64,000 bases of DNA from Terriglobia bacterium (GCA_036496425.1 DASXLG010000070.1:6087-70086); one strand, 5' to 3'; numbered from the stretch's first letter, positions 16,861 through 64,000 are shown. The notes: generated by a model from the letters alone, not told the origin. Program-made: numbers and translations.

Positions 16861-18186
16861 TCAGATCTCCATCGCGGCTGTGCTGTCGCCGAAGGATTCC
16901 CGCGGCACGTCGAGCTTGTGGAGAACGGCGAGCAGCAGGTTGGACATGGTGGTGTCCTTCGGATTGCGCAGATGACGGCCGCTTTTCAGCTTGCCGGACG
17001 CGGAGCCGGCAAGAATAACCGGCAGCGGCGCGTGATTGTGCTGGTTGCCGTCGGCCATTGCGCTGCCGTAGAGCACCATCGAATGGTCGAGCAGGCTGCC
17101 GTCGCCGTCCGGCGTGTTCTTCAGTTTCTCGAGCAGATAAGTGAACACGGTCACGTGATAGCGGTTCAGGACGGCAAACTTGTCCATGTTCTCGCGCAGA
17201 TTGGAATGATGCGAAAGGATGTGGAACGCGTCGCGGATTCCGCTTTTCGGATAGACCGCATTGCTGAGTTCCTTCGCCATTAATAACGTCGTGACGCGTG
17301 TGAGATCCGCCTGCCAGGCCAGAACCCACAGGTCGAACATCAATTTGATGTGTTCTTCGAAATCCTTCGGAATACCTGTCGGAGCGGCGGGCACATTCAG
17401 ATCCGAAGAGACCTGGGCGCCCGCTTTCTCGATGCGCCGTTCGATTTCGCGCAGGTCATTCATGTATTGATCGACGCGGGCACGGTCGCTGGCGGAAACC
17501 TTCTTGTTTAGCGCATTCACATCGCCCATCACCGAATCCAGCAGGCTCAGCGACTGTTCGCGGCGGGCGCGGCGCAGTTCATCGGTGCTGCCGTCGCCGA
17601 ACAGGCGTTCGAAAACCACCTGCGGATTGTTCTGCATCGGCAGCGGCGAAGTCGCACTCTGCCACGAAAGCGTGTCGCGATAGGCGCAGCTCAACCCGTC
17701 GCCGCAGCTCAGGCTCGCATCTTCGATACCGAGTTCGAGCGAAGGCATCGCCGTATCCTGGCCGATCTTCTGGGCGGCAACCTGGTCGGCCGTCACTCCA
17801 AGGTAAGCCTGGGGACCCGAGCGCGCTTGCGCGCCGCTGAGATAGGCGGCAGCCGAGCGCGTATGGTTCGAAGTCGCCGATCCGCCGCCGTAGGCCTGCG
17901 GATGGCTCATATCGCTGACGATGTTGATGCGGTCGCGATACGGTTTCAACGGTTCGAGGATCTCGGAGAATTCAAACGTGGCGCCGTTGCCGGCCGGCGT
18001 CCACTTGTCCATCGTGGCGCCGTGCGGGAAATAAATCGCGCCGAAACGCGTCCGCACTTTCGCGGCGGCCGTCTGCCGCAGCGGCGTTGCCGCAGGAACC
18101 ATGGATTCCAGAAAAGGCAGCGCGATCGTAACGCCCGCTCCGGTCAGGAAGGTGCGCCGTGAAAGATGCTTTTTCGTGATGAACAT
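16861..18186 (-). CDS. DUF1501 family protein (Tat-exported, sulfatase/alkaline-phosphatase fold), module 1
   Basis: MFITKKHLSRRTFLTGAGVTIALPFLESM has the twin-arginine signal SRRTFL. Conserved family blocks are FIYFPHG, MD.W.PA..G, PL...R...I....S and HS.VLYGS.M...N.HNH.PLP..L.G. Length is 441 aa. Confidence 0.85.
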   Translation of the reverse strand: MFITKKHLSRRTFLTGAGVTIALPFLESMVPAATPLRQTAAAKVRTRFGAIYFPHGATMDKWTPAGNGATFEFSEILEPLKPYRDRINIVSDMSHPQAYGGGSATSNHTRSAAAYLSGAQARSGPQAYLGVTADQVAAQKIGQDTAMPSLELGIEDASLSCGDGLSCAYRDTLSWQSATSPLPMQNNPQVVFERLFGDGSTDELRRARREQSLSLLDSVMGDVNALNKKVSASDRARVDQYMNDLREIERRIEKAGAQVSSDLNVPAAPTGIPKDFEEHIKLMFDLWVLAWQADLTRVTTLLMAKELSNAVYPKSGIRDAFHILSHHSNLRENMDKFAVLNRYHVTVFTYLLEKLKNTPDGDGSLLDHSMVLYGSAMADGNQHNHAPLPVILAGSASGKLKSGRHLRNPKDTTMSNLLLAVLHKLDVPRESFGDSTAAMEI

Positions 18187-18200
18187 TTCCCGTCTCCTGT

Positions 18201-20486
18201 CTACGATTTGAGTTTCTTCTGAAACGCGTCGCTCTGCACGACTCCGAGCACCAGCGACGAAAATTTATAATCGTTCTGAGCGGCCCGCCGGACAATCGTC
18301 CGAACCGCCGGCATGTCGTAGTATTGCACCGTGCGGCCCGTAGCATAAGTCAAAAGCTTCTGCGTGGCCGTGGTTACGAACCTGTCCTTGCGCGACAGCA
18401 GCGCGTTCCGCAGGTCGGCGACGCCGTTCAGCTTTGTCCCATCAACGAGTTGCCCCGACGAATCGATCGGCGTTTTACCGTCGAGCGTGCGCCAGGTTCC
18501 GACCATATCGAAATTCTCCAAGGCAAAACCGATCGGGTCCATGATCTTGTGACAGCTCGCGCAGGGCTCGACTTTCCGGTGCAGCTCCAGCCGCTGCCGC
18601 AACGAGGTGACCTTCACCTGCTCGGCATCCTTTTCCAGATTCGTGTCGATGCCGGGCGGCGGTACCGGCGCCGGCGTACCCAGCACGTTTTCGAGAATCC
18701 AGCGTCCGCGCGTCACCGGCGAGGTGCGCGTTCCAACCGAGCTGACAGTCAGGAAAGAGCCCTGCCCGAGGATGCCGCGCCTTGGACTCGAGGCCTCCAG
18801 AGTCACGCGTCGGAAATAACTGCCGTGGATATTCGGAATGCCGTAGTGCTGCGCGAGGCGTTCGTCCACGAACGTGTAGTCGGCATCGAGCAGCGTCACG
18901 ATGCTGCGGTCCTCCCGAATGATGCTGTCGAACAGCATCTCGGTTTCGCGCTTGAACGCCTGGCGCAGATTGTCGTCGAAATTCTTGGCGGACGTTTCCG
19001 CCTTGGCCAGCTCACGCAGTCCCAGCCATTGTCCGCCGAAGTTGGTGACCAGCGCTGCGGACTTCGGGTCGGCCAGCATGCGCTTCGTCTGCTGCTCGAA
19101 GACTTTCGGATCGCTCAGCCTGCCTTTGATCGCAACGTCGAGAAGCTCATCGTCCGGCATGCTGCTCCACAGGAAGAACGACAACCGCGATGCGAGCTCG
19201 AGATTGCTGAGCCGGTAGACGCCGCCTGCGGCCACGGTTGCGGGCTCGTCCTCGATGCGATACAGAAATGCGGGAGCCACCAGTATCCGCGCGATGGCTT
19301 CCTGAATGCCGGTCTCGAAGTCGGAGTCCTTGCGTCCATGCTGATAGAAACTCATCAGCTTGGTGAGTTCGGCTTCCTGCACCGGGCGGCGAAATGCGCG
19401 CCGCGCAAGCGTGCTCACAACCTGGCGGGCGCAGGCGGGTTCCTCGGCCAGGTTCGCAGGCCGGCAAACGAAGATGCGCTTGCGGCTCGGCGAATCGCCG
19501 GCGCCGGCTGGATTGAACGGCCCGTTGATCACGATCGTGTTGACGCCGCCGGCCGGATTGAAGAGGCCATTGACGCGAAAATCGGAATACGCTTCATCGA
19601 CGCCGGCGCCGCGCTGCCGGTCGATCAGGGCGGCGCCGATCGTATGCGGCCCGGCGGCAATCGCAAGCCGGAAGTTCCGGGTGTTACGCACACCGATCCG
19701 GTTGCCGTCCACCGTAATGTCGGTCGTCGCCCCGCCACCGCCGATGCCGCCGCCAACCGTGAAGTCATACTCGGCATCCATCGGAAACGTATGCTGGACC
19801 AGCATGCCGCCGCGCGTTCCGAGCGGCAGCCCTTCAATATGGCGATCCTGGGCGAAGGCCGGAGGCGCGTTGTACGTCGCCTGCGACGGAATCAGCGTCC
19901 GGTCGCCGACGGCGCGCCGCGAAATTTTCATGGCCGCGGAGATATATCCCTGAATCAACGAAGGCGAGGTTCCCAAGGCGTCCGCGATGTTGTCAAAACC
20001 CTCAGTCGCGTCGTCCTGCGGCAAAAGCGCCGGCACATCCACATCCAGCGCGAGCAGGTCGCGGATCACGTTCGCATATTCGGTACGGTTCAGACGATGC
20101 AACGCCGGCGTGCCGGGATTCGGATGCAGCGCGGCCGCGCTGTCGAGGCGTTTCTCGATTTCCGATGCGAAGGCGTCAAGCTCGGCGCGCTCCGGACGGC
20201 GCGCTCCGCTCGGCGGCATCATCCCGGTCTTGATCTTGCGGACAACCTTTTCCCAGGTGGCGGCATCTTTCGCGATGTTCGAGTAGTCCATGCTGTCGAG
20301 CATGAGACCGGCGGTCTTCGCGCGCTGATTGTGGCAGCCGACGCAGTATTTCGTTGGCAGCGCGTTATCGAGCGGCGGCGCCTGGGCCGCGAAGAGGGGG
20401 ACGGAACACAAGAAGCACAAAAAGCACAAGATTCCCGGGAACCGATTTTGCTCTTTCTTGTGCCTCTTGTGCTTCTTGTGTTCCAT
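18201..20486 (-). CDS. PSCyt/PSD multidomain di-heme family protein (DUF1585/1587/1588/1592/1595-type 'Planctomycete cytochrome C' architecture), module 1
   Basis: N-terminal MEHKKHKRHKKEQNRFPGILCFLCFLCSVPLFAAQA then ...YCVGCHNQRAKTAGL (heme motif 1). Family blocks include NPG.P.LHRLNRTEYANVIRDLL, ILDADYTFVDERLAQHYGIPN and FRRVTL....RRGILGQGS.LT.TS...RTSPV.RG. A second motif, CASCHKIMDPIGFALENFD, lies near the C-terminus. Length is 761 aa. The first 28 codons are encoded by the palindromic repeat. Confidence 0.85.
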   Translation of the reverse strand: MEHKKHKRHKKEQNRFPGILCFLCFLCSVPLFAAQAPPLDNALPTKYCVGCHNQRAKTAGLMLDSMDYSNIAKDAATWEKVVRKIKTGMMPPSGARRPERAELDAFASEIEKRLDSAAALHPNPGTPALHRLNRTEYANVIRDLLALDVDVPALLPQDDATEGFDNIADALGTSPSLIQGYISAAMKISRRAVGDRTLIPSQATYNAPPAFAQDRHIEGLPLGTRGGMLVQHTFPMDAEYDFTVGGGIGGGGATTDITVDGNRIGVRNTRNFRLAIAAGPHTIGAALIDRQRGAGVDEAYSDFRVNGLFNPAGGVNTIVINGPFNPAGAGDSPSRKRIFVCRPANLAEEPACARQVVSTLARRAFRRPVQEAELTKLMSFYQHGRKDSDFETGIQEAIARILVAPAFLYRIEDEPATVAAGGVYRLSNLELASRLSFFLWSSMPDDELLDVAIKGRLSDPKVFEQQTKRMLADPKSAALVTNFGGQWLGLRELAKAETSAKNFDDNLRQAFKRETEMLFDSIIREDRSIVTLLDADYTFVDERLAQHYGIPNIHGSYFRRVTLEASSPRRGILGQGSFLTVSSVGTRTSPVTRGRWILENVLGTPAPVPPPGIDTNLEKDAEQVKVTSLRQRLELHRKVEPCASCHKIMDPIGFALENFDMVGTWRTLDGKTPIDSSGQLVDGTKLNGVADLRNALLSRKDRFVTTATQKLLTYATGRTVQYYDMPAVRTIVRRAAQNDYKFSSLVLGVVQSDAFQKKLKS
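20403..20484. repeat. Palindromic repeat family 1, copy B (28-nt arms, 26-nt loop); it encodes the signal peptide of the module-1 PSCyt gene
   Basis: Arm 1 is ggaacacaagaagcacaaaaagcacaag (20403-20430). Arm 2 is cttgtgcctcttgtgcttcttgtgttcc (20457-20484), which is the reverse complement of arm 1 with one mismatch. On the minus strand it encodes M-EHKKHKRHK-KEQNRFPG-ILCFLCFLCS. Confidence 0.85.
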
Positions 20487-20490
20487 TTCC

Positions 20491-22002
20491 CTAGTTGGCT
20501 TTCGATTGAAGTTTATTGATGAGCTCGATCGAGCTGGGTTTCGCTTTCGCCGGATGCGTGGCGAGGAAAACGCCTTCGGCCCAGTTGAGGGTTGTGCGGC
20601 CTTCGTTATCCTTCAGGTCGAGACGCGCGCCTTTGCTGACAAGCCACTCGAGGATCTCGTCGGAACCGCGATTCGCCGCGCCCATGACGGCAGTAATGCC
20701 CATCGAATTCACATCGTTCACGCTGAGTCCGAGATCGAAGCAAAGCTTCACGGCCTCGAGGAGATTCTTCTGGCCCTCGTCATAGGTCTGATCGACAACC
20801 CAGTTCACGCCGGCGGCGGCCATTAGCGGAGTGGTTCCTCCAAATGTCGCGATTTTCGGATCCGCACCGGACTTCAGCAGCAGGCGCATGACGGTAACAT
20901 CGCCGGAATAGGCCGCGCGAAGGAATGGCGTCTGGCCAGTAAAGTCGACCCATTCGAGTGTGCCGGTCGTGCGGAGCATGAAGCGGCGGATCGGAATACT
21001 CTCCTTTGTCCGGGAATTCGGATCGGCGCCTTTGTCGAGCAACGTCTTGATGAGGTCCAGGACAGGTTCGCGTTCGATGCCGTTTTCAAATGTTCCATTG
21101 TCTTCGTCCATGTTGCGGACTTCGACGGCGGTCCATAGCGGCGTGCGCCCATACCAATCGCTGACGTTGATCCTGGCGCCTTTATCGATCAGAAATTGCG
21201 CCGTCGCCATCTGGTCGTCGGCGATGGCCATCAGCAGCGGCGTGATTCCGTTCGGATCGGCCTTTTCGAGATCCGCGCCGGCATTCACCAGGAGCTTTGC
21301 GGCGTCGAGCCGCCCGTCGCGCGCCGCATAGAGCAACGGCGTGAGACCGCCGGGAATGAAATATCGCGAGCCGCGCGCCGGCAGTCCGCCGCGGATGATG
21401 CCGATGCCGTGACCGAAGCCGGGCACGGAATTCGGAAGAATCCAGCCCGGCGTTTCGCCGGTCCGGGTCTGCGCATTCACGTTGGCGCCATGTTCGACGA
21501 GAAGCCCGGCGACATCCGGATGATTTTCGCGCACAGCGATCATCAACGCGGTCTGCTTGTACAGCGGGTCTTCGGTGTCGACCTTCGCTCCGTGATCGAG
21601 AAGGGCGCGGACGGTTTCGAGATCCCCAACCTTGGAGGCCGTCATCAATGCGGTCTCGCTCGTCGGATCGGTCGTATTGGGATCGGCGCCGGCATCGAGC
21701 AGCAGCCTGGTCATCGCGGCGTTGCCGTTGGAGCACGCAAGGTAGATCGGAGTGACGCCGTAGCGGTCGGCAAGCTTCACGTCCGCGCCCGCCTTAATAA
21801 GGAGACGCGCGGTTTCCAGATCGTCGACGCGCACAACCCAGTGGAGCGCCGGAGTGCCGTCGGTTCCAGGCGCGTTGACATCGACCTTTTGATTCAGCAT
21901 CGAGCGGACGGTTGCCATGTCGCGGTGCGCGGCCGCATCCGCCAGGTTTCCATAAGCGATCAATGACGCCAGCAGGATTGAAGGGATCATAATGGTGTCC
22001 AT
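20491..22002 (-). CDS. Secreted ankyrin-repeat protein, module 1
   Basis: Signal-like N-terminus MDTIMIPSILLASLIAYGNLADA. At least 10 ankyrin repeats are present (e.g. DGTPALHWVVRVDDLETARLLIKAGADVKLADRYGVTPIYLACSNGNAAMTRLLLDAGADPN). The stop is 4 nt before the PSCyt start. Confidence 0.85.
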   Translation of the reverse strand: MDTIMIPSILLASLIAYGNLADAAAHRDMATVRSMLNQKVDVNAPGTDGTPALHWVVRVDDLETARLLIKAGADVKLADRYGVTPIYLACSNGNAAMTRLLLDAGADPNTTDPTSETALMTASKVGDLETVRALLDHGAKVDTEDPLYKQTALMIAVRENHPDVAGLLVEHGANVNAQTRTGETPGWILPNSVPGFGHGIGIIRGGLPARGSRYFIPGGLTPLLYAARDGRLDAAKLLVNAGADLEKADPNGITPLLMAIADDQMATAQFLIDKGARINVSDWYGRTPLWTAVEVRNMDEDNGTFENGIEREPVLDLIKTLLDKGADPNSRTKESIPIRRFMLRTTGTLEWVDFTGQTPFLRAAYSGDVTVMRLLLKSGADPKIATFGGTTPLMAAAGVNWVVDQTYDEGQKNLLEAVKLCFDLGLSVNDVNSMGITAVMGAANRGSDEILEWLVSKGARLDLKDNEGRTTLNWAEGVFLATHPAKAKPSSIELINKLQSKAN

Positions 22003-22086: not shown

Positions 22087-22470
22087 CTATTGCCTGGTCA
22101 GCTGAAAATCGCCCTGCTCGCCATCATGCGACCAGGTTCCCGCCATTTTATTGCCTTCAATTTTGCCATCGACAACGTAATGGACCGTCCGGCCGTTTGC
22201 CTGAGCATCGAATTGGATGTTGATGGCGCTCATCTCCGGCTTGAAAACGGCCTGAGTCACATCAAGCGATCGAGTCCCCGCCTGAACCGTTCCGCGAAGT
22301 GTCGTATTGTCCCATTTCAAATCGAGAGTGATGGGATCGCGCCGTTCGGCATTCGGGCCGTAGTCGCCGGTCCATCGTCCGCTTGGCGGCGCCGTTGAAG
22401 GACCGGCCTTCGGACCGCAGGCCGCTAGCAGCATGAATATCGATATCGAACAAACGATTTTGAGTTTCAT
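22087..22470 (-). CDS. Small lipoprotein, hypothetical
   Basis: MKLKIVCSISIFMLLAACGP is a lipobox (LLAAC-G). The protein is 127 aa and sits between the module-2 DUF1501 gene and the module-1 ankyrin gene on the same strand. Confidence 0.5.
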   Translation of the reverse strand: MKLKIVCSISIFMLLAACGPKAGPSTAPPSGRWTGDYGPNAERRDPITLDLKWDNTTLRGTVQAGTRSLDVTQAVFKPEMSAINIQFDAQANGRTVHYVVDGKIEGNKMAGTWSHDGEQGDFQLTRQ

Positions 22471-22502: not shown

Positions 22503-23816
22503 TCAGATCTCCGCAATAACTCCGGTACTGTCCCCGATTTTTTCTGCCGGGACTCCAGCCTTATGCAGGATGGTGAGCAGAAGGTTCGAATGGGTGGTCA
22601 GTTTTGCCAGTTTGATGTGCCTGCCGCCTTTGACGGTACCGTAAGCCCCTCCCGAGAGAATCATCGGCAACGGGCTGTGATTGTGTTCGTTGCTGTTGCT
22701 CATGCCACTGCCGTAGAGAACGAGCGCGTGATCGAGCAGCGTTCCATCTCCGTCCGGAGTGGCTTTGAGCTTCCCGAGGAAATAGGCCAGCATGCTGTGA
22801 TGGTATGCATTGAGTTCCGCGAACTTGTCCATATTGGCCCGTACGTTCGAATGATGCGAGAGATTGTGGAAGCCGTCGCGGATGTTGGTTGCGGGATATA
22901 CCGCATTGCTGACCTCATGAGCGAGCATCAGGGTTGCAATGCGGGTGATCTCGGCGCGGAAGGCGAGCACCTGGAGATCAAACAGCATTTTGATGTGATC
23001 TTCGAAGGCATCCGGCACACCCGCCGGAGTATCCGGCACATCCAACTTCGCTGCCTCCAGCTTCTGTTGCGATTTCTGGATCCGGCGTTCGATTTCGCGC
23101 ACGTCATCCAGGTAATCGGTAACCCGTCCTCGATCGCCGGCCGGAAGCTGCCGCTGCAGGGCGCCGAGCTGGTCCGTTACGGAATCGAGCAGGCTGCGTG
23201 CTTCTTTGCGCCGCGCATTCCGTTCGGCCTCATTCGAGCCGTCACCGAAAAGTTTTTCGAAGATGACCTGCGGATTGTTTTCCATGGGTAGTGGAGAGGT
23301 CGCGGACTGCCAGGCGATGGAATTCCGGAAGGGGCTGGTCAAGCCGCCCTCTTCGACCGTCATTTCGATGGACGGCAGAGGCGTATCCTGTCCAATCTTT
23401 TTGGCCGCCATCTGATCGGCGGATTCTCCGAGAACCGGACGCGGCGTCTCTTCCGGCTTGGCCCCTGTAATAAACACGGCCGATGAATTGGTATGGTTGG
23501 CGCCGGCTGAGGCATCTTTGCCATACGCCATCGGCGCATAAGTGTTGCTGATGATGTTGACATGGTCGCGGAACGGTTCAAGCGGCTTCAGGATGGGTGT
23601 AAATTCAAACCCTGCGCCTTCGGTTGCGGGCGCCCATTTGTCCATCGTCACACCGTGCGGGAAATAGATGAAGCTGAGCCGTGTCCTGGAATTTGCGGCC
23701 GCTGTCAATGGCGTCTGGGCCGGCAGCATAGACTCCAGAAAAGGCAGAGCCAGCGTGACGCCTGCACCGCGTATAAAGGTCCGTCGCGAAAGATGTTTTT
23801 TGGTGATGAAGTTCAT
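22503..23816 (-). CDS. DUF1501 family protein (Tat-exported), module 2
   Basis: MNFITKKHLSRRTFIRGAGVTLALPFLESM, with the same family blocks as the other four paralogs. A 4-nt overlap with the PSCyt stop is present. Confidence 0.85.
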   Translation of the reverse strand: MNFITKKHLSRRTFIRGAGVTLALPFLESMLPAQTPLTAAANSRTRLSFIYFPHGVTMDKWAPATEGAGFEFTPILKPLEPFRDHVNIISNTYAPMAYGKDASAGANHTNSSAVFITGAKPEETPRPVLGESADQMAAKKIGQDTPLPSIEMTVEEGGLTSPFRNSIAWQSATSPLPMENNPQVIFEKLFGDGSNEAERNARRKEARSLLDSVTDQLGALQRQLPAGDRGRVTDYLDDVREIERRIQKSQQKLEAAKLDVPDTPAGVPDAFEDHIKMLFDLQVLAFRAEITRIATLMLAHEVSNAVYPATNIRDGFHNLSHHSNVRANMDKFAELNAYHHSMLAYFLGKLKATPDGDGTLLDHALVLYGSGMSNSNEHNHSPLPMILSGGAYGTVKGGRHIKLAKLTTHSNLLLTILHKAGVPAEKIGDSTGVIAEI

Positions 23817-30334: not shown

Positions 30335-30490
30335 AAAAAGGAGCGAGTATACACGCTGCCGCGCGCCATCCGCGTCATCTGCGGCTATAAATACTCCCTC
30401 TTTTCCGAATTTACGTTGACAACAACTCTGTAAGTGAATTTAATGGGCGCAAATTTCCGGTTAAGAGAATTTCAGGTGGAGGACTCTACG

Positions 30491-47989: not shown

Positions 47990-48078
47990 GAGATTCTCCC
48001 GGTTAAGTCCGATCAAAATATCATGAACGGCGCAAAAGGACGTAGCGGTATGAAGGCGGAGAATCGTTGTGAGAGCAG

Positions 48079-48270
48079 ACATTCCCCGCCTTTCCAAGGC
48101 GGGGAGGCTGCGCCATCAAGAGATAGTCCCGTTCCTTATCGGCGCAGACGGGGCGGTTTGTAACTTCCATCAACAAGTAAGGAGCGCTACGCGGTTCGTT
48201 GATAACCGCCCCGCCCGAGCGTTCTAACGTTTGATCTCTCGGGCACCCCGCCTTGAAAAGGCGGGGAATG
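48079..48270. repeat. R2 structured repeat, copy c, the most complete copy; it lies in the 5' leader of the PQQ-dehydrogenase gene
   Basis: acattccccgcctttccaaggcggggaggctgcgccatcaag...cggcgcagacggggcggtttgtaacttccatcaac...gttgataaccgccccgcc...caccccgccttgaaaaggcgggg. At least four hairpins are visible, and the core matches 12714-12810 and 62704-62800. Confidence 0.8.
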
Positions 48271-53692: not shown

Positions 53693-53699
53693 ATTAAGG

Positions 53700-57162: not shown

Positions 57163-57177
57163 TTTGATTGGCGTGGT

Positions 57178-57249
57178 TGAACATGGTGTGTGAGCGACCC
57201 CCTGCCGCCGCTTCGCGGCGGCAGGGGGTCGCTCACACACCATGTTTAT
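57178..57249. terminator. Perfect 32-bp-stem palindrome between convergent genes, likely a bidirectional terminator
   Basis: aacatggtgtgtgagcgaccccctgccgccgc-ttcg-gcggcggcagggggtcgctcacacaccatgtt. It starts 16 nt after the stop of the plus-strand polyferredoxin and overlaps the stop of the minus-strand hypothetical. Confidence 0.6.
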
Positions 57250-57734
57250 TTCTCCTCCCCGCTCTTCAGCACCTCGCACTCTCCGTAGTACTGTTCCGGA
57301 CTCGAGGTAAATCCCGGCAGCGAGATGTCGGTGTACTCATGCCGCGAATGCATGGCCTTGAGCTTTCCACCCGCCGTCTTTTTCTCCAGAACCGTGGTGA
57401 TGTAAAGCTGCCCGTCGAGAAACGATTGAATGAAGTGCAGGTAGCCGTTCGCATAGCGCACCACGATGTCGTACTCTCCCAGACCGCTCTGGAGAGCGGC
57501 GGTTCCTCCTTCGGCGTCGATCGCATCGAACTGCAAAACAAGGCTCGCCGGTTGTACTTTGGCCTCAGGTTTCTCACGTCCCCAGGTTCCGACAGCCATC
57601 AGCGGAAACGTGCACTTGATGCTTTTGACACCGGCCAATAACGGCTTCTCGGTCTGCGCACCAGAGGAACGGTACGGCACCAGCAACAAGACTGCACAGA
57701 TTATGAAGAGGACCACCGTGCGGTTCAGGAACAT
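57246..57734 (-). CDS. Secreted hypothetical protein
   Basis: MFLNRTVVLFIICAVLLLVPYRSSGAQTEKP... is a signal peptide. The protein is 162 aa, and no family is recognised. Confidence 0.4.
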   Translation of the reverse strand: MFLNRTVVLFIICAVLLLVPYRSSGAQTEKPLLAGVKSIKCTFPLMAVGTWGREKPEAKVQPASLVLQFDAIDAEGGTAALQSGLGEYDIVVRYANGYLHFIQSFLDGQLYITTVLEKKTAGGKLKAMHSRHEYTDISLPGFTSSPEQYYGECEVLKSGEEK

Positions 57735-57744
57735 GAATACTCCT

Positions 57745-57833
57745 TTATTACGGCTGCGCGCTATCGCGCTTGCGCTTCGCCTATTACGGCTGCGCGCTAT
57801 CGCGCTTGCGCTTCGCCTATTATGGCGCGTCGG
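57745..57833. repeat. 36-bp tandem direct repeat, 2.5 copies, in the ApbE/hypothetical intergenic spacer
   Basis: ttattacggctgcgcgctatcgcgcttgcgcttcgc, then ctattacggctgcgcgctatcgcgcttgcgcttcgc, then ctattatggcgcgtcgg. Each unit contains the palindrome GCGCGCTATCGCGC. The third partial unit overlaps the ApbE stop codon. Confidence 0.8.
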
Positions 57834-58884
57834 TCGGCTTGGCGAGCATTGTCAGGCGCCCTTTGATGCCCGGGGATACCAGCACTTCGTTTTTCGAACT
57901 GACGATCACGGCATCCACGCCGGGCGTCCGTTGGACCAGCGCCATGCCGGCCTCGGGGCCGAGAATGAAAACACCCTTCGATAACCCGTCGGCCATTGTC
58001 GCGCTGTTGGCAACAATCGTCACGCTGCGGCAGCCCATCGCGGGCTCACCTGTCGCCGGATCGATGATGTGATGATACCGCCGGCCGTTCCGGACAAATG
58101 ACCGCGCATAATCGCCGGACGTGCTGAACGTGCTGTCGGACAAGTCGATCTGCGCGAAGATCTGATTCTGCGGGCCGCGCGGGTCCTGGATGCCGAGCCG
58201 CCACATGTGGTTGTCTTCAAGACCCGCAGCATACATGTCGCCGCCGAACTGCACGATGAAGTCGTGGAATCCCCGGCGTTTGAGAATGTCGCTGGCGCGA
58301 TCGACGGCATACCCTTTTCCGATTCCGCCGAGGTTCACGGTCATTCCCTTCCCCTCGATGAACGCCGTTCCGGCGGCATCGTCAACCACGACCTTCCGGT
58401 AGTCGATGAGTTTTCGCTTGCGCGCGATTTCTGCAGGAGCCGGAATCGTATCGTCCTTGTTCTGGTAATCGAATTTCCAGAGGTCCGACAAGGCGCCCCA
58501 CGTGATATCGAATTTTCCCTCTGTCAACTCGCTGAGTTGATGCGCCGACCGCAGCACCTCGCGGAGCTCGGGCGCCACGCGGACGGGGTGCAACCCGGCG
58601 GCCGCGTTCAATTGTTCGACGTCGCTGGTTTTCAGCCAGTTGCTCAGCAGTCCTTCGAGCCGGTTCATTTCGTTGAACACGGCTTCGAAGGCGGCATTGG
58701 CGCCGGCTTCATCCGCGGTCCAGGCCTGAAGGTGAAGCTCTGTTCCCATCGAGGCGAAGGTTCGCTCGACGAGGTGCGCGGCGGGTTTTGGAGGTGATGG
58801 TGTCTTCGTGCAGGCGGCAAGAAGAAACAGGAAAGCCAGCCGCAGATTACGCGGATGACGCAGATGGGGCGCCACCAGGTTCAT
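57820..58884 (-). CDS. apbE: FAD:protein FMN transferase (ApbE family), lipoprotein
   Basis: MNLVAPHLRHPRNLRLAFLFLLAACTKTP carries a lipobox. ApbE blocks include ...RTFASMGTELHLQAW...FDITWGALSDLWKF...VNLGGIGKGYAVDRASDILK...IVQFGGDMYAAG...STSGDY.R.F..NG..YHHIIDP.TG.P. Confidence 0.8.
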   Translation of the reverse strand: MNLVAPHLRHPRNLRLAFLFLLAACTKTPSPPKPAAHLVERTFASMGTELHLQAWTADEAGANAAFEAVFNEMNRLEGLLSNWLKTSDVEQLNAAAGLHPVRVAPELREVLRSAHQLSELTEGKFDITWGALSDLWKFDYQNKDDTIPAPAEIARKRKLIDYRKVVVDDAAGTAFIEGKGMTVNLGGIGKGYAVDRASDILKRRGFHDFIVQFGGDMYAAGLEDNHMWRLGIQDPRGPQNQIFAQIDLSDSTFSTSGDYARSFVRNGRRYHHIIDPATGEPAMGCRSVTIVANSATMADGLSKGVFILGPEAGMALVQRTPGVDAVIVSSKNEVLVSPGIKGRLTMLAKPTDAP

Positions 58885-58914
58885 TTAATGCGCCCCATCT
58901 GCGTCATCCGCGTA
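58848..58914. promoter_or_regulatory. Perfect 27-bp-stem palindrome that encloses the apbE start codon in its loop
   Basis: attacgcggatgacgcagatggggcgc-caccaggttcatttaat-gcgccccatctgcgtcatccgcgtaat. The minus-strand ATG (58882-58884) lies inside the 13-nt loop. The structure sits 15-80 nt downstream of the DUF1501 stop at 58929. Confidence 0.5.
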
Positions 58915-58928
58915 ATATGCGGCTGGCC

Positions 58929-60257
58929 TTACAAACTCAGGCGGCCGGTGCTGTGTCCGATCTGTTCCAGTTCAACGTTCGCCAGGTCCGCCACGGCAAG
59001 CAGCAGATTTGCGGTAGGCTCTTTGTTTTCGACGGCAATATGCCGATTCCCTTTCAGCCGGCCGTTCGCTCCGCCGATCAGGGCAGCCGGAGGCGTGTTG
59101 CGATCATGCGCGTTGCCGTTGCTCATACCGCTGCCGAAGTAAATGACGGCGCGATCGAGCAGGTTGCCGTCGCCATCCGGAGTCGCTTGCAGCTTAGCGA
59201 TGAACTCCGCGAGTTTCTGCGCGTGATAGGTGGTGATTCTCGCGTACTTCTCGATGTTTTCCGGCTTGTCTCCGTGATGCGAGACCGGATGATGCGGCTC
59301 GGGAATGCCGATATGAGCGTAACTGCGGCTGCTTCCCTCATGGCCGACCATAAAGGTAAAGACGCGCGAAATGTCGCCTTGAAACGCGAGGCGCATCAGG
59401 TCATAGGTCACCGTCATGTGCTCGTCGAAGGTGTCCGGAATTCCGAGCGGCGCCGCTGCGCCCTCTGGAACCGCGGCGGCGCGAGCTTCCATGCGATCGA
59501 GTTGCTGTTCGACGTCGCGGATATTGGACAGGTACTGCTCCAGGATGGCATTGTCCGCCGGCCCGAGTTTCTTCCGCATGGCGGCGGTTTCGCTGGCGAT
59601 CGAATCCAGCATGCTCAGTTTCTCTTTCAGGTTCGCCAGCCGCTTGCGCGAAGAACCGGCTTCGCCGAACATACGCTCGAACGTGACGCGCGGATTGATA
59701 TCCATCGGCAGCGGGCTCGTATCGTCGCGCCAGGAGACGGCGTTGAAGAAGACGCAGGGATAGCCATCGCAGGCGCCGGCCGACGTGCCCATGTCTTCCG
59801 TGCCGACCTGCAGCGAGCGCATCGGCGTATCGTCGGCAATTCCATCGGCAATGAATTGATCGACGGTCTTCTTGGACCGGATCACGGTGTACTCGGCCTG
59901 CTTCGTCAGCGGACCGACTCCGTTCAACCATGCCGCGCTGGCTCCCATGTGGACGCCGCCATTCTCGGGATTGCCGTCGGGCGCCTTCATCTTGCTCACA
60001 GTGACCACATAGTTCCGATAGGGCTCGAGCGGCTTCATGATCGGCTTGAACTCGAAGTCGCTGCCGACCTTGTCCGGATGCCACAACTGCGGATAGATCC
60101 CGTTCGGCACGTAAACCGCGCCAAAGCGGAACGGCCGCACTCTGGACTGAGCGGATAGCGCAGGTGTCATGGCGTCAAGAAAAGGCAGAGCGACCGCTGT
60201 CCCGAAGGCGCCGCGAAGGAAGGTACGGCGGTCGATATGTTTCTTTGTGATGATCAT
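58929..60257 (-). CDS. DUF1501 family protein (Tat-exported), module 5
   Basis: MIITKKHIDRRTFLRGAFGTAVALPFLDAM, with the family blocks AVYVPNG and HS.VIYFGSGMSNGNAHDRNTPP. An upstream in-frame extension to 60311 is possible. Confidence 0.8.
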   Translation of the reverse strand: MIITKKHIDRRTFLRGAFGTAVALPFLDAMTPALSAQSRVRPFRFGAVYVPNGIYPQLWHPDKVGSDFEFKPIMKPLEPYRNYVVTVSKMKAPDGNPENGGVHMGASAAWLNGVGPLTKQAEYTVIRSKKTVDQFIADGIADDTPMRSLQVGTEDMGTSAGACDGYPCVFFNAVSWRDDTSPLPMDINPRVTFERMFGEAGSSRKRLANLKEKLSMLDSIASETAAMRKKLGPADNAILEQYLSNIRDVEQQLDRMEARAAAVPEGAAAPLGIPDTFDEHMTVTYDLMRLAFQGDISRVFTFMVGHEGSSRSYAHIGIPEPHHPVSHHGDKPENIEKYARITTYHAQKLAEFIAKLQATPDGDGNLLDRAVIYFGSGMSNGNAHDRNTPPAALIGGANGRLKGNRHIAVENKEPTANLLLAVADLANVELEQIGHSTGRLSL

Positions 60258-60294
60258 AGGGATGGCTCCTGTTTCCAACTGGACTCTATTGGAT

Positions 60295-62691
60295 TTAATT
60301 CGCATTTTCATCCGTTTTCACCCTCATCTGGAACGGAGAGCTCTGGATGATTCCCAGAATAATGGATTGCATCGGATAGCTATTCTTTGCGGCGCTTCTC
60401 ATGATGCTCCGCACCACCGGCATATCGACCGGCTCGAGCCCGCGGCCCAGCGCATAGATCATCAGCTTTTCCGTTACCGTTCCGACGAACACTTCCGGAC
60501 GCGCCAGGATCGCTTTGCGCAGCGCCACCGGTCCATCGACAGGAGTGCCGTCGGCAAGCACGCCGGCAGAATCGATTTTCAGGCCGTCTTTTGTGGCGGT
60601 CTCCCACTTTCCGACCGCGTTGAAGTTCTCCAGCGCAAACCCGACCGGATCGATATTGCGATGACACGCGCCGCACACTGGATTCGCGCGGTGCAGCTCG
60701 AGCTGCTGGCGAACCGTGGTCGGGCGGTCCTTGGCTGCGCTCGCTTCGAGCGCCGGCACGTTGGGCGGCGGAGGCAGCGGAGGCGTATTCAGGAAATTCG
60801 AAATGATGAACTTCCCGCGCAGAACCGGCGACGTACGATTCGCGGCCGAGGTCAATGCCAGGAGACTGCCCTGTCCGAGCAGGCCGCGGCGGTTGGGATC
60901 GGTCAAGGTCACACGGCGGAAGCGCGAGCCGTACACGTTCGGGATTCCGTAGTGGCGCGCGAGCCGCTCGTTTACGAATGTGTAGTCGGCATCCAGCAGA
61001 TCGAGCACGCTGTGGTTTTCGCGCACGATGCTGGTAAAGAATAATTCCGTTTCGCGCCGGAACGCCTGGCGGACGTTGTCGTCGAAATCCGGAAACATCA
61101 ACAGGTCGGGAGTCACCTTGTCCAGATTGCGAAGCTGCAGCCACTGCCCGGCGAAGCCGGTCATCAGGCTGTCCGCGCGCTCGTCCGCAATCATGCGATG
61201 GACCTGCGCTTCAAGAACACGCGGGTCGTGCAGGCGGCCGGCGGCGGCCAGGTTCAGGAGTTCGTCGTCCGGGAAGCTGCTCCACAGGAAAAAGGAAAGC
61301 CGCGATGCCAGTTCGATATCGGTGATGCGATGCGGCGCGCCCGGCAGCAGCGCGGCCGGATCTTCTTCCGAACGGAAGACGAAGGCCGGGCTCGCCAGAA
61401 TCCGGGCAAGTCCCGCGCGAATGCCGGCGTCGAAGTCGCCGCCGTTCTTGCGAGCGTTGCTGTAGAAATCCATCGGCGCCTTCACATCGGCCGGCGTGAC
61501 CGGCCGGCGGAATGCACGGCGCGCCACGGTCGATAGAATGGTATTGGCGCAGGCGGCCTCTTTAACGGTTGCCGACGGCTTGCAGACGAACAGCCGTTTG
61601 CGCGAAGGCGTGTCGCTGACGCCGGTAACGTTGTACGGCCCCTGAATGTTTCCGGTGCGCAGTCTCGGAATGCCCGAAGGATTGTGCGCTTCGAGGCTGT
61701 CCCGCAGCACCGGCTGCCACACGTTCTGCTCCTGCGCCGGACGCTCGATGAATGTAAATCCAATCTCGTGGGAACCGGCGGTCACCGCGAGGCGCGGCGA
61801 AATCATCCGCCTATTGATCTCTTCGCGCGAAATCACGATATTCTTCGAGCTCGACTCGTGGTCGTCCTTGCCGCCGATCGGCACGGTGAAAACCTGCTCT
61901 CCATCGACAGTGACGATGAACTGATGCGGCGTCTCCTGGCCTTCGACTCCGACATAGCCTTCGGCCACCGTATCCAGCAGCCGGCCGTAGAACACATATT
62001 CGCCATCCGCCGGGAAATCATAATGAACCAGCATGCCGCCCCGCGTACCGAGCGGCAGTCCCTCGATGTGCTGGCCCTGCGTTACCGTGGTCGGGAGCGT
62101 GAACGACGCCGTTCCCGGATCGGCTTCGGCATCGCCGACCGCCTTTTCGCTGATCTCCAGCGCGGCGCTGAGGTAGCGCTCCAGCAGAAGAGGCGAGGTC
62201 GGCAGCGCTGTCGCGATATTGTCGAACCCGAAATCGCCACCGTCGCTCGGCAGATACTCGGCGGCATCTATTTTGATATCGAGAAGATCGCGAATGGCGT
62301 TCGCGTATTCGGTCCGGTTCAGACGATGCAGGACATACCGTCCCGGATTGCTGTTCTTGGCGGCGGCCGCATCGAGGCTGGTGATCAGCGTGGAACGAAA
62401 ATTATTCAGTTCGCCGGTTCCGGGAGTCGGAGAATTTCGCGGAGGCATCGAGCCGACGCCGAGTTTCTTGACGACCCGTTCCCAGACCGCCGCATCGGCG
62501 CCCGGATCTTTGAGGTTCGCCTTGTCCAGAATGAGCGGCGCGCCGGCCGGCGTCTTCGATTTCTCGTTGTGGCAGGTGACGCAGTACTTGTTCACCATCT
62601 CCTGATACGCGGCGGGATCCTTTGCTTGAGCCAAACCGGAGGTCGCCAGAGCAAGAGCGGCGAAGGCGAAGAGAAGAAAGGCGCAACTCAA
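60295..62691 (-). CDS. PSCyt/PSD multidomain di-heme family protein, module 5 (non-ATG start; a TTG at 62691 is proposed)
   Basis: (L/M)SCAFLLFAFAALALATSGLAQA signal, then ...YCVTCHNEKSKTPAGAPL. Family blocks include HRLNRTEYANAIRDLL, LLDADYTFVNERLARHYGIPN and FRRVTLTDPNRRGLLGQGSLLALTSAANRTSPVLRG. A C-terminal CGACHRNIDPVGFALENFN is present. There is no in-frame ATG upstream of the h-region, and the R2 repeat abuts the 5' end. Confidence 0.75.
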   Translation of the reverse strand: MSCAFLLFAFAALALATSGLAQAKDPAAYQEMVNKYCVTCHNEKSKTPAGAPLILDKANLKDPGADAAVWERVVKKLGVGSMPPRNSPTPGTGELNNFRSTLITSLDAAAAKNSNPGRYVLHRLNRTEYANAIRDLLDIKIDAAEYLPSDGGDFGFDNIATALPTSPLLLERYLSAALEISEKAVGDAEADPGTASFTLPTTVTQGQHIEGLPLGTRGGMLVHYDFPADGEYVFYGRLLDTVAEGYVGVEGQETPHQFIVTVDGEQVFTVPIGGKDDHESSSKNIVISREEINRRMISPRLAVTAGSHEIGFTFIERPAQEQNVWQPVLRDSLEAHNPSGIPRLRTGNIQGPYNVTGVSDTPSRKRLFVCKPSATVKEAACANTILSTVARRAFRRPVTPADVKAPMDFYSNARKNGGDFDAGIRAGLARILASPAFVFRSEEDPAALLPGAPHRITDIELASRLSFFLWSSFPDDELLNLAAAGRLHDPRVLEAQVHRMIADERADSLMTGFAGQWLQLRNLDKVTPDLLMFPDFDDNVRQAFRRETELFFTSIVRENHSVLDLLDADYTFVNERLARHYGIPNVYGSRFRRVTLTDPNRRGLLGQGSLLALTSAANRTSPVLRGKFIISNFLNTPPLPPPPNVPALEASAAKDRPTTVRQQLELHRANPVCGACHRNIDPVGFALENFNAVGKWETATKDGLKIDSAGVLADGTPVDGPVALRKAILARPEVFVGTVTEKLMIYALGRGLEPVDMPVVRSIMRSAAKNSYPMQSIILGIIQSSPFQMRVKTDENAN

Positions 62692-62703
62692 TCGTCGTGA
62701 GCG

Positions 62704-62880
62704 ACATTCCCCGCCTTTCCAAGGCGGGGTGGCTGCGCCATCAGTAAATATCCCCAGTCCTTGATCGGCGCAGACGGGGCGGTTGGTAACTTCCGACAAA
62801 ATAAGGTGCGCTTCGCGGCAATTGTCAGGTGGCTTCGCGACATTACTAACCACCCCTACCCCTCCTTGAAAAGGAGGGGA
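62704..62880. repeat. R2 structured repeat, copy d, in the 5' leader of the module-5 PSCyt gene
   Basis: acattccccgcctttccaaggcggggtggctgcgccatcagtaaa...cggcgcagacggggcggttggtaacttcc...ccctacccctccttgaaaaggagggga. It shares its core with copies b and c, and its terminal hairpin is identical to the one at 9468-9488. Confidence 0.8.
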
Positions 62881-62897
62881 ATGCTGCTCCCGCTTTC

Positions 62898-64000
62898 TCA
62901 TTGCGCCTCTCCAGCAGCAGGCGCAGCCGCAGCAGGCGGCAATCCCATCAATTGCCGCAAAAGTTTCGCGACATCCTGAGACGAAGCCGCTCCACGTCCG
63001 CCACGGCCGCGTGCTGCTCCAGCTGCGGGCGGCGCAGTTCCGCGTTCTCCCGCGTCCTTGGCTGCCGGTTTTTTCCCTTCCACAACATCGAGGGCGGTCA
63101 GACCGTCCTTGTTCGTGGCTTTGAAATCCACGCCCGCATTGGCAAGCGCGTGGATCATATCGAGATTCCCCACTTGCGCGGCCATCTGCAGCATCGGCGT
63201 TCCGTCGGGCCCCTTCGCGTTCGGATTGGCCCCCGCTTTAACGAGCAATGCAAAAGCCTCTTCCGGCTTGCGGCTTCCGGGTTCACGGTACGGTACCGTA
63301 CCGGAGCGGATGTATCCCGGTCCGCCCGTCATCGCGGGGCCGCGGCCGCCCGTCATCGTGACCATGGCTGGTGTCTTACCGGCGTTCGGATTGCCGCGCT
63401 GCCCGCGACCGCCTGCGGCCGCCGCGTCGGCAGGCGGCGCGTCTTTGGGTGGCGCGGGAGGAACCGGGATGATTCTGTCGATATCGATGCCGTGCGCGAT
63501 CATGACCTTCAAGGTCTCGACGTCCGACTCGACCGCAGCGCGCAAAAACGGCGAATTGTCGAAACGGTCGGTGTTGGGCATCGACGTCGAATGAAACTGG
63601 CCTGCGAATGGTTTGTACGGATCGGCGCCGCGCTCGAGCAGGAGCTTCACGAGATCCAATGCGGTCAACGTGTTCGGATGGTTCGGCCGCAGCCTGGAGC
63701 CGTCGAAGGCAAACTGGTCGGTGGTGGAATCGCGCATCTCAACGGCTGTGTAGAGCGAGCCGTCGTTGACATCTGCGCCAAAATCCCAGAGCTCCTTCGC
63801 GAGATCGAAGCGGTCATTATAGATAGCGATCATCGCGGCGGAGGCGCCGTCACCGTTCTTCAGGTTGAGATCCGCTCCGGCCTGGACAAGCCGCCCGACG
63901 ACATCTTCATATCCGTTGCGCGCGGCCCACATCAGAGCGGTGAAACCACCGGTGGGATGGTCGGCATTCTTACGTTCGGTGAGCGAGTTCACGTGCGCCT
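62898..64000 (-). CDS. Ankyrin-repeat protein, module 5; the N-terminus runs off the right edge
   Basis: ...HPTGGFTALMWAARNGYEDVVGRLVQAGADLNLKNGDGASAAMIAIYNDRFDLAKELWDFGADVNDG... are ankyrin repeats. The C-terminus is Ala/Gly/Pro-rich, and no start lies within the window. Confidence 0.75.
   Translation of the reverse strand, partial: AHVNSLTERKNADHPTGGFTALMWAARNGYEDVVGRLVQAGADLNLKNGDGASAAMIAIYNDRFDLAKELWDFGADVNDGSLYTAVEMRDSTTDQFAFDGSRLRPNHPNTLTALDLVKLLLERGADPYKPFAGQFHSTSMPNTDRFDNSPFLRAAVESDVETLKVMIAHGIDIDRIIPVPPAPPKDAPPADAAAAGGRGQRGNPNAGKTPAMVTMTGGRGPAMTGGPGYIRSGTVPYREPGSRKPEEAFALLVKAGANPNAKGPDGTPMLQMAAQVGNLDMIHALANAGVDFKATNKDGLTALDVVEGKKPAAKDAGERGTAPPAAGAARGRGGRGAASSQDVAKLLRQLMGLPPAAAAPAAGEAQ

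Follow-up and report, generated by a model that had tools for sequence, protein, structure and literature searches.

The window, by which we mean the whole 64,000-nt stretch of DNA analyzed, comes from a soil acidobacterium. Across 47 kb of it lie five diverged copies (M1 to M5) of one three-gene set encoding a putative two-heme PSD/PSCyt3 protein (the cytochrome), a DUF1552/HXXSHH protein, and an ankyrin-repeat protein. The genes of these modules and their neighbors are as follows.

20491–22002, minus: M1 ankyrin-repeat protein, predicted exported (Pfam Ank/Ank_2, E 1e-62); a hydrophobic N terminus precedes the first repeat
18201–20486, minus: M1 putative two-heme PSD/PSCyt3 (DUF1592-type) protein, 761 aa; PSD3, PSD5, PSD4, PSCyt3, and PSD2 above cut-off; CxxCH at residues 48 and 642
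16861–18186, minus: M1 Tat-signal DUF1552/HXXSHH protein, 441 aa (PF07586, E 4.7e-89); twin-arginine motif SRRTFL
26092–27675, minus: M2 ankyrin-repeat protein, predicted exported (Pfam Ank, E 5.7e-63); 53% identical to that of M1
23813–26095, minus: M2 putative two-heme PSD/PSCyt3 protein, 760 aa; overlaps each neighboring gene by 4 nt
22503–23816, minus: M2 DUF1552/HXXSHH protein, 437 aa (PF07586, E 2.1e-84)
22087–22470, minus: lipoprotein-like small ORF following M2; local addition, no match in Pfam or NCBIfam
30434–34615, plus: TonB-dependent-receptor-like outer membrane protein directly upstream of M3, loosely associated (OMP_b-brl_4, E 4e-122)
34742–35656, plus: M3 leading Tat-signal metallo-beta-lactamase (MBL)-fold protein (Lactamase_B, E 5e-15); atypical motif 1, DWHLDH
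35667–38099, plus: M3 putative two-heme PSD/PSCyt3 protein, 810 aa; N-terminal cytochrome c, CBM6/35/36-like beta-sandwich (about residues 205–358), helical PSD5/PSD4/PSCyt3/PSD2 body
38113–39423, plus: M3 DUF1552/HXXSHH protein, 436 aa; predicted alkaline-phosphatase-superfamily fold
39424–40887, plus: M3 ankyrin-repeat protein, predicted exported, 487 aa; begins directly after the DUF1552 stop codon
40884–41831, plus: hypothetical, predicted secreted protein after the M3 ankyrin gene, a local addition without family match
41845–42759, plus: CarboxypepD_reg and TPR protein (Pfam), a local addition
46130–48097, minus: PQQ-dependent dehydrogenase (methanol/ethanol family) downstream of M4, loosely associated (TIGR03075, 534 bits; cut-off, 480); CC and DYD motifs
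53700–54632, minus: M4 leading Tat-signal MBL-fold protein (Lactamase_B, E 1.5e-14), 39% identical to that of M3; atypical motif 1, HWHPEQ
51248–53692, minus: M4 putative two-heme PSD/PSCyt3 protein, 814 aa
49935–51221, minus: M4 DUF1552/HXXSHH protein, 428 aa (PF07586, E 2.4e-86)
48278–49933, minus: M4 ankyrin-repeat protein, predicted exported; 47% identical to that of M3
62898–64000, minus: M5 ankyrin-repeat protein (Pfam Ank), partial at the window end
60295–62691, minus: M5 putative two-heme PSD/PSCyt3 protein, 798 aa (Pfam; CxxCH motifs)
58929–60257, minus: M5 DUF1552/HXXSHH protein, 442 aa; HxxSHH kept
57820–58884, minus: ApbE flavin transferase following M5; local neighbor (ApbE, E 8.6e-84)

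All five module copies recognized in the initial annotation were recovered, with ORFs at or very near the positions first proposed, and independent JGI gene calls agree with the proposed start codons where comparable (M4 and M5 cytochromes, 814 and 798 aa; M5 DUF1552 protein, 442 aa). The M1 ankyrin ORF is open to 22074, and the ATG at 22002 gives a signal-like N terminus. The M5 ankyrin ORF crosses the window edge; it encodes 553 aa on the source contig, which carries no sixth module beyond it. Genes within modules had been described as separated by 1 to 11 nt or overlapping by 4 nt. Close packing holds for M1 to M4, although the actual range is wider (gaps of 0 to 26 nt or overlaps of 1 to 4 nt), and it fails for M5, where ankyrin and cytochrome genes are about 206 nt apart, with a GC hairpin repeat in the gap, cytochrome and DUF1552 genes 37 nt, and DUF1552 and apbE genes 44 nt. 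The spacing suggests co-transcription within modules. Scans for promoter and terminator consensus sequences gave as many matches as shuffled sequence or fewer and were left unused.

The long proteins were predicted to be di-heme proteins of the PSCyt type, and this is borne out. All five carry PSD3-PSD5-PSD4-PSCyt3-PSD2 in that order, each above its Pfam gathering score (PSD3, 75 to 80 bits; PSD5, 47 to 79; PSD4, 142 to 167; PSCyt3, 108 to 116; PSD2, 75 to 90), and the N-terminal domain has a borderline Cytochrome_CBB3/PSCyt1 match. Each contains exactly two CxxCH motifs, one in the N-terminal cytochrome c domain and one in PSCyt3. Both are invariant across a 38-sequence alignment and mark two putative c-type heme attachment sites per protein. 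The chain of about 800 aa is built from a class-I-like cytochrome c N terminus, a beta-sandwich similar to CBM6/35/36, and a helical PSD5/PSD4/PSCyt3/PSD2 body holding the second CxxCH. A search of the PDB with the cytochrome sequence returned nothing meaningful, so PSD/PSCyt3 has no solved structural relative there, and NCBIfam holds no model for the cytochrome, the DUF1552 protein, the hypothetical protein, or the lipoprotein.

The partner protein of about 440 aa had been assigned to DUF1501, and the pair described as PSCyt-DUF1501. Instead, all five of these proteins match PF07586 (DUF1552) at 261 to 299 bits against a cut-off of 30 (E 1e-77 to 1e-89), and Pfam gave no DUF1501 match at an E of ≤0.01 for any of them. 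The two families share a Pfam clan, that of the alkaline phosphatase (AP) superfamily. That the modules are the PSCyt1/PSCyt2/PSD1 (DUF1549/DUF1553)-plus-DUF1501 system of Planctomycetes with an ankyrin added is almost certainly wrong: all but one of the long proteins show a weak N-terminal PSCyt1 match (19 to 25 bits; cut-off, 22) and the partner has an AP-superfamily fold, which speaks for it, but the Pfam families differ on both sides of the pair, the long proteins having no match to PSCyt2 (DUF1549) or PSD1 (DUF1553), and the Pfam results on both proteins refute that identity. The pair is thus PSCyt3/PSD-DUF1552, to which a different literature and partner family apply. He et al. 2017 (PMC5615132) pointed out two such pairings in Planctomycetes and Verrucomicrobia, of which this is the second; its domains were first defined in Rhodopirellula baltica. 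The known pair (DUF1587-DUF1595-DUF1592-DUF1588-DUF1585 plus DUF1552) shares with the window modules the long-protein architecture, the partner family, the cytochrome-then-DUF1552 order, and tight spacing.

The H, S, H, and H of the HxxSHH motif are invariant in alignments of 5 and 23 DUF1552 sequences, and further His, Asp, and Ser residues are invariant in the 23-sequence alignment. The M5 protein retains the motif and lacks three His residues conserved in the other four paralogs. A structural model of moderate quality (mean pLDDT, 68) places the core in the alpha/beta fold of the alkaline-phosphatase/sulfatase superfamily, and sequence search of the PDB matched no chain. AP-superfamily enzymes (NPP, S1 sulfatases, phosphonate monoester hydrolase, and LtaS/EptA) are 7 to 14% identical to DUF1552 and use a canonical Asp/Ser-Thr-fGly nucleophile, in contrast with the HxxSHH and additional His/Asp set conserved here. 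Given the moderate quality of the model, DUF1552 may alternatively be a noncatalytic binding protein.

The initial annotation had placed all components in the periplasm, and the N termini are consistent with this: twin-arginine motifs occur in the DUF1552 and MBL proteins, and hydrophobic N termini occur in the cytochrome and ankyrin proteins. It had also described the modules as diverged paralogs of partial identity, which agrees with the 36 to 59% identity measured. M1 and M2 are nearest neighbors in all three families, as are M3 and M4, with M5 an outlier, and gene order agrees with this grouping. Over 59 modules, co-divergence was found between DUF1552 and cytochrome (Mantel r = 0.72), DUF1552 and ankyrin (0.74), and cytochrome and ankyrin (0.65; each P = 0.001), correlations driven in part by shared species phylogeny. 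Gene order also tracks DUF1552 distance clustering, in which the ankyrin-upstream arrangement forms one cluster. Classing external modules by nearest window paralog, an approach superseded by the distance-matrix correlation, gave 30 concordant triplets out of 55 and mixed results for the rest, so that for most external modules no single window paralog is the ortholog. These patterns show that the module duplicates and diverges as one unit.

Five ankyrin-repeat proteins are encoded in the window (Pfam Ank/Ank_2, E 1e-21 to 1e-63); in each, Ank, Ank_2, Ank_3, Ank_4, and Ank_5 exceed their cut-offs. They are about 500 aa long, with many repeats and long insertions. Conservation was examined in sets consisting of the 80 best matches to each query, which are biased samples, with ankyrin and MBL detectors that were HMMs made from the window's own proteins. 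Single-protein homolog searches reached close orthologs only; a plasmid collection and a further scan of loci, this one started from a Planctomyces-type query, gave access to distant clades. In the 80 loci whose DUF1552 proteins are close relatives of those in the window (Acidobacteriota and Gammaproteobacteria), an ankyrin gene adjoins 79 of 86 DUF1552 genes (59 downstream, 16 upstream, and 4 divergent). Of the other seven, six lie in sequence cut short around the gene, and L044 alone lacks an ankyrin gene despite full context; adjacency within the window-type DUF1552 clade is about 98% in this set. For 82 of 89 ankyrin ORF fragments, the distance to a core gene is at most 600 nt. The triad is also present, with Pfam confirmation, on a 1.3-Mb replicon of Novosphingobium sp. 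KACC 22771. The claim that an ankyrin gene belongs to every module, and not by coincidence, is therefore upheld by co-conservation.

The generality implied for this link did not hold. No ankyrin ORF was found in the 80 best-matching Planctomyces-type DUF1552 loci, 22 of which extend 1.8 kb or more in both directions, or beside the annotated DUF1592-DUF1552 pairs of Planctomyces SH-PL62, Chondrinema litorale, and Sphingobium herbicidovorans. The ankyrin thus marks one DUF1552 subfamily only (Acidobacteriota, Gammaproteobacteria, and Alphaproteobacteria), in which it is a near-obligate third partner, and is missing from the Planctomyces-type, Bacteroidota, and Sphingobium pairs. The many pairs without ankyrin indicate that the pair can work alone, as expected if the adjacency were a local coincidence or a lineage-specific hitchhiker functionally unlinked to it. 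We consider this highly improbable, given that adjacency spans Acidobacteriota classes, Gammaproteobacteria, and one alphaproteobacterium and outlasts changes in gene order, and that the ankyrin co-diverges with its partners. No paper on a cytochrome-DUF1552-ankyrin triad was found in a literature search, and the ankyrin partner of the PSD/PSCyt3-DUF1552 pair appears to be undescribed so far.

A Tat-signal MBL-fold protein is an optional, clade-restricted fourth gene in leading position. The two window proteins match Lactamase_B at 56.4 and 54.8 bits (cut-off, 22.7; E 1e-14 to 1e-15), and in the PDB the sequences closest to them are those of IMP-1, SPM-1, and CphA (E about 1e-10 to 1e-11). Neither has the canonical HxHxDH metal motif, and both score below the NCBIfam thresholds for class B enzymes (bla_class_B_core, 67 and 40 bits; threshold, 100). 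The MBL-led form, first proposed from M3 and M4, recurs on the same strand in L018, L076, and L079 and divergently in L031 and L057, and M3, M4, L018, and L076 group together in DUF1552 distance clustering. The Planctomyces-type, Chondrinema, and Sphingobium pairs lack both this leader and the ankyrin. Other genes initially counted as module members, those for the lipoprotein, the hypothetical protein, the CarboxypepD_reg/TPR protein, and ApbE, were rejected because they do not recur in related loci: among 80 loci, the lipoprotein had weak, distant matches in 3 and the hypothetical protein had relatives in 2, ApbE had none, and the CarboxypepD_reg/TPR gene was not recurrent. PADLOC returned generic ankyrin-repeat matches only and nothing for cytochrome, DUF1552, or MBL, so an anti-phage defense system was rejected.

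The best overall explanation, which we regard as likely, is that these are five diverged paralogs of a conserved periplasmic module in which DUF1552 would be catalytic and the ankyrin an adaptor. The three proteins would probably assemble in the periplasm, where the substrate of the DUF1552 metalloenzyme would be an anionic ester or a small or oligomeric compound related to one. The beta-sandwich of the heme protein would bind substrate or partner, its two hemes would pass electrons, and the ankyrin solenoid would serve as a dedicated adaptor or stabilizer. Its contact is most likely DUF1552, given that three loci (L028, L030, and L034) retain a DUF1552-ankyrin pair with no cytochrome gene within 10 kb. 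Five paralogs in a row may serve different substrates or partners.

The ankyrin might instead help the heme protein, through heme delivery, folding, or stabilization, in the manner of AnkB or Cj1386. An exported or periplasmic ankyrin lies next to, and is needed by, a heme enzyme in katB-ankB of P. aeruginosa, Cj1386-katA of C. jejuni, and ank-katE of Leptospira; in the first two species it is needed for full heme-catalase activity, probably via heme binding (PMC7567364). These pairs are a precedent, as functional analogy only, for an exported ankyrin working with a heme enzyme, and in the M1/M2 clade the ankyrin gene stands immediately before the cytochrome gene. AnkB/Cj1386-type ankyrins are small and serve b-heme catalases, whereas the window ankyrins are large, the hemes here are c-type (CxxCH), and a third protein with a predicted AP fold is the more constant neighbor. 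Because c-type heme is attached covalently by Ccm/Ccs machinery, a b-heme trafficking role does not transfer directly. No catalase was found beside any window module or among recurrent neighbors, three loci keep the DUF1552-ankyrin pair without cytochrome, and the ankyrin-DUF1552 distance correlation slightly exceeds that of ankyrin and cytochrome. We therefore think a heme-helper role unlikely.

Rather improbable, too, is that the modules are uptake-and-degradation islands for plant or microbial polymers, resembling PULs, in which a TonB receptor imports and the CBM-like domain of the cytochrome binds glycan. Of 81 loci, 18 contain a TonB-dependent-receptor gene, and in L004, L006, L024, and L037, as at M3, it directly precedes the module in the same orientation, but the overall frequency may equal the Acidobacteriota background. 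The jelly-roll fold of the beta-sandwich is not sugar specific, and no glycoside hydrolases or other CAZymes are among the recurrent neighbors. CBM domains occur in some PSCyt proteins, for which He et al. 2017 proposed a role in carbohydrate metabolism (PMC5615132). Cbp2D of Cellvibrio is likewise an exported multidomain protein, in which CBM2 and PSD3/DUF1587 are joined to cytochrome domains with a single CxxCH each; one of these, X183, reduces LPMOs in vitro. Its overall architecture differs, the paper describes no DUF1552 or ankyrin partner, and the passages considered here report no PSD5/PSD4/PSCyt3/PSD2 for it (PMC8981238).

We give little credence to the modules being accessory electron-relay or processing units for periplasmic PQQ dehydrogenases, possibly of the lanthanide type, with the MBL as a SoxH-like "quinoprotein relay" hydrolase. 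The window's PQQ dehydrogenase, which has CC and DYD motifs, is encoded just past the downstream end of M4, but two GC hairpin repeats part them. A gene of this family is present in 20 of 81 loci and in several, including L031, L074, L080, L063, and L018, adjoins the module in the same orientation, yet about three-quarters of loci have none within 10 kb. PQQ-family genes are abundant in these genomes, and neighbor counts may equal background. The quinoprotein relay system zinc metallohydrolase models TIGR04558 and TIGR04559 are among the best NCBIfam matches of both MBLs, at scores (33 to 64 bits) far under the cut-offs of 280 to 300. TonB-receptor and PQQ associations with the modules are regarded here as leads.

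The triad represents a new form of a known, uncharacterized pair, spread over several phyla. DUF1552 is a large, uncharacterized family (15,908 cluster representatives at 50% identity match it at an E of ≤1e-3), and the literature searched names DUF1552 or PSD/PSCyt3 only rarely. A near-obligate third partner provides a clade boundary for comparing DUF1552 proteins with and without ankyrin, and it yields a testable prediction of a periplasmic complex. Novosphingobium sp. KACC 22771, a cultured carrier of the triad, is suited to genetics. A bolder proposal, which we hold to be doubtful, is that the triad forms a periplasmic redox enzyme of three obligate subunits, with the ankyrin solenoid as a core structural one, a role that to our knowledge is not known for bacterial ankyrin proteins; the paralogs and optional MBL would then be substrate-specific machines for oxidative processing of esters or organo-anions, possibly wired to lanthanide-type PQQ dehydrogenases. 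If this were true, soil Acidobacteria would gain a family of substrate-specific processing machines.

An ORF map reproduced the five modules described in the initial annotation (M1 to M5). In all five paralogues, the long protein (760 to 814 aa from likely starts; here, the cytochrome) has the Pfam domain order PSD3-PSD5-PSD4-PSCyt3-PSD2 (as DUFs, DUF1587, DUF1595, DUF1592, DUF1588, and DUF1585), and its N-terminal cytochrome c domain gave a near-threshold score for Cytochrome_CBB3/PSCyt1. The CxxCH motif occurs exactly twice in each long protein, in the N-terminal domain and again in PSCyt3, and "di-haem" is therefore a fair reading at the sequence level. The ~440-aa proteins had been called DUF1501, a family that none of the five matched in Pfam. 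All five are DUF1552/HXXSHH proteins (PF07586; E values of 1e-77 to 1e-89) with a twin-arginine motif (KKHLSRRTFLRGAG) at the N terminus and an invariant HxxSHH. The M5 DUF1552 protein (58929-60257, minus strand) keeps HxxSHH and has lost three histidines shared by the other four paralogues (H54N, H363R, and HNH to HDR); it may have a variant metal site or be a degenerate paralogue. A sequence search found no PDB relatives of DUF1552 or the cytochrome. Five ankyrin proteins and two Lactamase_B (MBL) proteins, which lead M3 and M4, were confirmed. Both MBLs have twin-arginine N termini and an atypical first metal motif (DWHLDH and HWHPEQ), and their best NCBIfam matches, all far below cut-off, include the class B beta-lactamase core and SoxH-related "quinoprotein relay" hydrolases.

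To follow the ankyrin gene in related genomes, a DUF1552 alignment was scanned against one genome per GTDB species, and the best 80 loci were kept (DUF1552 43 to 75% identical to that of M1; Bryobacterales, Vicinamibacterales, other Terriglobia, Gammaproteobacteria, and a few other bins). Neighbors of their 86 DUF1552 genes were counted with HMMs built from the window proteins.

Position of the ankyrin gene relative to 86 DUF1552 genes in the best 80 loci
Directly downstream, same strand: 59
Directly upstream of the cytochrome gene, same strand: 16
Upstream, divergent: 4
Not found, flanking context incomplete: 6
Not found despite full context: 1 (locus L044)

The proposed link of ankyrin to the gene pair was thus borne out, with L044 the only full-context case among these loci to lack it. 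Of 89 ankyrin ORF fragments, 82 had a core gene no more than 600 nt away; the others were split genes or lay at locus ends. A hydrophobic N-terminal segment just ahead of the first repeat was present in 56/59 ankyrin orthologues, which would fit export.

Distant pairs were sought by tblastn of plasmids and secondary replicons. Novosphingobium sp. KACC 22771 (37% identity) has a Pfam-confirmed cytochrome-DUF1552-ankyrin arrangement. No ankyrin gene lay beside the annotated DUF1592-DUF1552 pairs of Planctomyces sp. SH-PL62 (30%), Chondrinema litorale (29%), or Sphingobium herbicidovorans (26%). In the last (L084, 9408-10519), the DUF1592 protein is short, and the position after DUF1552 is taken not by ankyrin but by individual genes for cytochrome c and cytochrome b, an arrangement that fits an electron-transfer role of the pair. 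In a contrast set, the best 80 loci of the Planctomyces-type clade from a metagenome scan seeded with the distant proteins, 0/80 had an ankyrin ORF (22 of them flanked by 1.8 kb or more of context on each side). The ankyrin is therefore near-obligate within a single DUF1552 subfamily and missing outside it, so that the constant partner proposed initially stands as a subfamily marker but not as a feature of the Planctomyces-type, Chondrinema, or Sphingobium pairs. Three related loci keep a DUF1552-ankyrin pair but lack a PSD cytochrome over the surrounding 10 kb (L028, 9809-12861; L030, 9908-12810; L034, 9959-12819), which suggests that the ankyrin tracks DUF1552 more closely than it does the cytochrome. 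Upstream of the L028 pair are a CarboxypepD_reg protein and a serine beta-lactamase-family protein; a PQQ propeller fragment lies upstream of the L030 pair.

The modules are paralogues duplicated as whole units. In every family, M1 is closest to M2 and M3 to M4; M5 is the outlying copy in each of the three families of the triad. M1 and M2 share 56% identity in the cytochrome, 59% in DUF1552, and 53% in the ankyrin (neither has an MBL); the values for M3 and M4 are 50%, 50%, and 47%, with 39% in the MBL. Gene order tracks this grouping in the window: ank-cytochrome-DUF1552 in M1, M2, and M5 and MBL-cytochrome-DUF1552-ank in M3 and M4. Tight spacing, as initially reported, holds for M1 to M4 (gaps of 0 to 26 nt or overlaps of 1 to 4 nt), but M5 is looser, with ~206 nt between ankyrin and cytochrome genes and a repeated GC hairpin inside the gap. 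The M5 ankyrin reaches 553 aa on the source contig, where MMPL, Uma2, and DUF3738 genes follow it; therefore, no sixth module adjoins M5. Two or three tandem modules also occur in L018, L035, L037, L043, and L053, and arrays are therefore common.

Pairwise co-divergence, a question raised with the initial annotation, was evident from distance matrices of 59 complete modules. Mantel r was 0.72 for DUF1552-cytochrome, 0.74 for DUF1552-ankyrin, and 0.65 for cytochrome-ankyrin (each p=0.001), correlations that are inflated by shared species history; the agreement of gene order with cluster is independent of that inflation. In average-linkage clustering of DUF1552 distances, the ankyrin-upstream order forms one cluster, and four MBL-led modules (M3, M4, L018, and L076) group together.

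Clustering of every ORF from the window and its 80 related loci (81 sequences in all) gave three further recurrent families. As raw counts, PQQ dehydrogenases occurred in 20 of 81 loci and TonB-dependent outer-membrane proteins in 18 of 81, links that we treat as leads. MBLs occurred in 9 of 81, with same-strand copies ahead of the cytochrome in L018, L076, and L079 and divergent ones in L031 and L057. The ApbE, lipoprotein, hypothetical, and TPR genes initially included in the modules did not recur among the 81 sequences, and no ApbE gene lay next to the modules of other genomes.

Other features of the window
43088-44385, plus strand: ECF sigma factor gene, then ChrR-like cupin anti-sigma gene, in the M3-M4 interval
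46130-48097, minus strand: PQQ-dependent dehydrogenase, methanol/ethanol family (TIGR03075, 534 bits; cut-off, 480), with vicinal CC and a DYD motif
55715-58884: FMN_bind protein, NosR-like Fer4_5 membrane protein, and ApbE, grouped and adjoining M5
2093-2137, 20395-20492, 40874-40994, and 49843-49890: palindromic repeat (AAGAAGCACAAGA... / ...TCTTGTGCTTCTT)
12719-12739, 48084-48104, 48246-48266, and 62709-62729: GC hairpin (CCCCGCCTT-NNN-AAGGCGGGG)
34626-34673: hairpin with a perfect 20-bp stem, in the interval separating the gene for the TonB-dependent outer-membrane protein from the M3 MBL gene
58832-58872 / 58890-58930: 41-nt inverted repeat, 95% complementary, from the M5 DUF1552 end to the apbE start
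9713-10012 and 11388-11687: direct repeat of 300 nt with 91% identity, over the starts of adjacent ORFs 9724-11343 and 11399-12484

The DYD motif is a signature of lanthanide-dependent XoxF/PedH-type enzymes. The FMN_bind/NosR-like/ApbE group resembles a membrane-to-periplasm electron-donor set. The palindromic repeat (6 matches versus 0 expected) runs in frame at three gene starts (M1 cytochrome, hypothetical protein at 40884, and M4 ankyrin), where it encodes a charged KKHK-type and/or hydrophobic LCFLCFLCS stretch and accounts for much of each predicted signal peptide; among 166 loci, it was found only on L085, from the window's own contig. The GC hairpin (4 matches versus 0 expected) sits in a ~108-nt repeat whose copies are all intergenic, two of them inverted between the M4 ankyrin and PQQ dehydrogenase genes and one between the M5 ankyrin and cytochrome genes; it may represent either a REP-like element or a terminator. 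The two ORFs sharing the direct repeat had no Pfam matches and look like recently duplicated genes.

The literature searched mentions DUF1552 and the PSD-type DUFs sparsely, and no description of the triad was found in it; He et al. (PMC5615132) noted the pairing of the cytochrome with DUF1552, and the word "ankyrin" is absent from the main text of their paper. Cellvibrio Cbp2D combines DUF1587 with cytochrome domains of the c type, one of them able to reduce LPMOs (PMC8981238). The module ankyrin has its nearest functional precedent in the exported ankyrin partners of haem catalases (PMC7567364). Tentatively, and with appreciable doubt, we propose that the cytochrome, DUF1552, and ankyrin proteins would assemble into one complex. 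Catalysis would fall to the Tat-signal, AP-fold DUF1552 protein, a putative metalloenzyme; the two-haem protein would serve as electron carrier and might also bind a ligand; and the ankyrin, most likely touching DUF1552, would act as a dedicated adaptor.

The initial observation was largely correct, with a wrong family label. The data establish that the three genes form a conserved periplasmic module and duplicate together, the ankyrin being clade-specific but near-obligate and the MBL optional; we hold this architecture and its conservation with high confidence. What was known is an uncharacterised cytochrome-DUF1552 gene pair, and what is new is its near-obligate ankyrin partner. The triad is a useful handle on DUF1552, a large family of unknown function.
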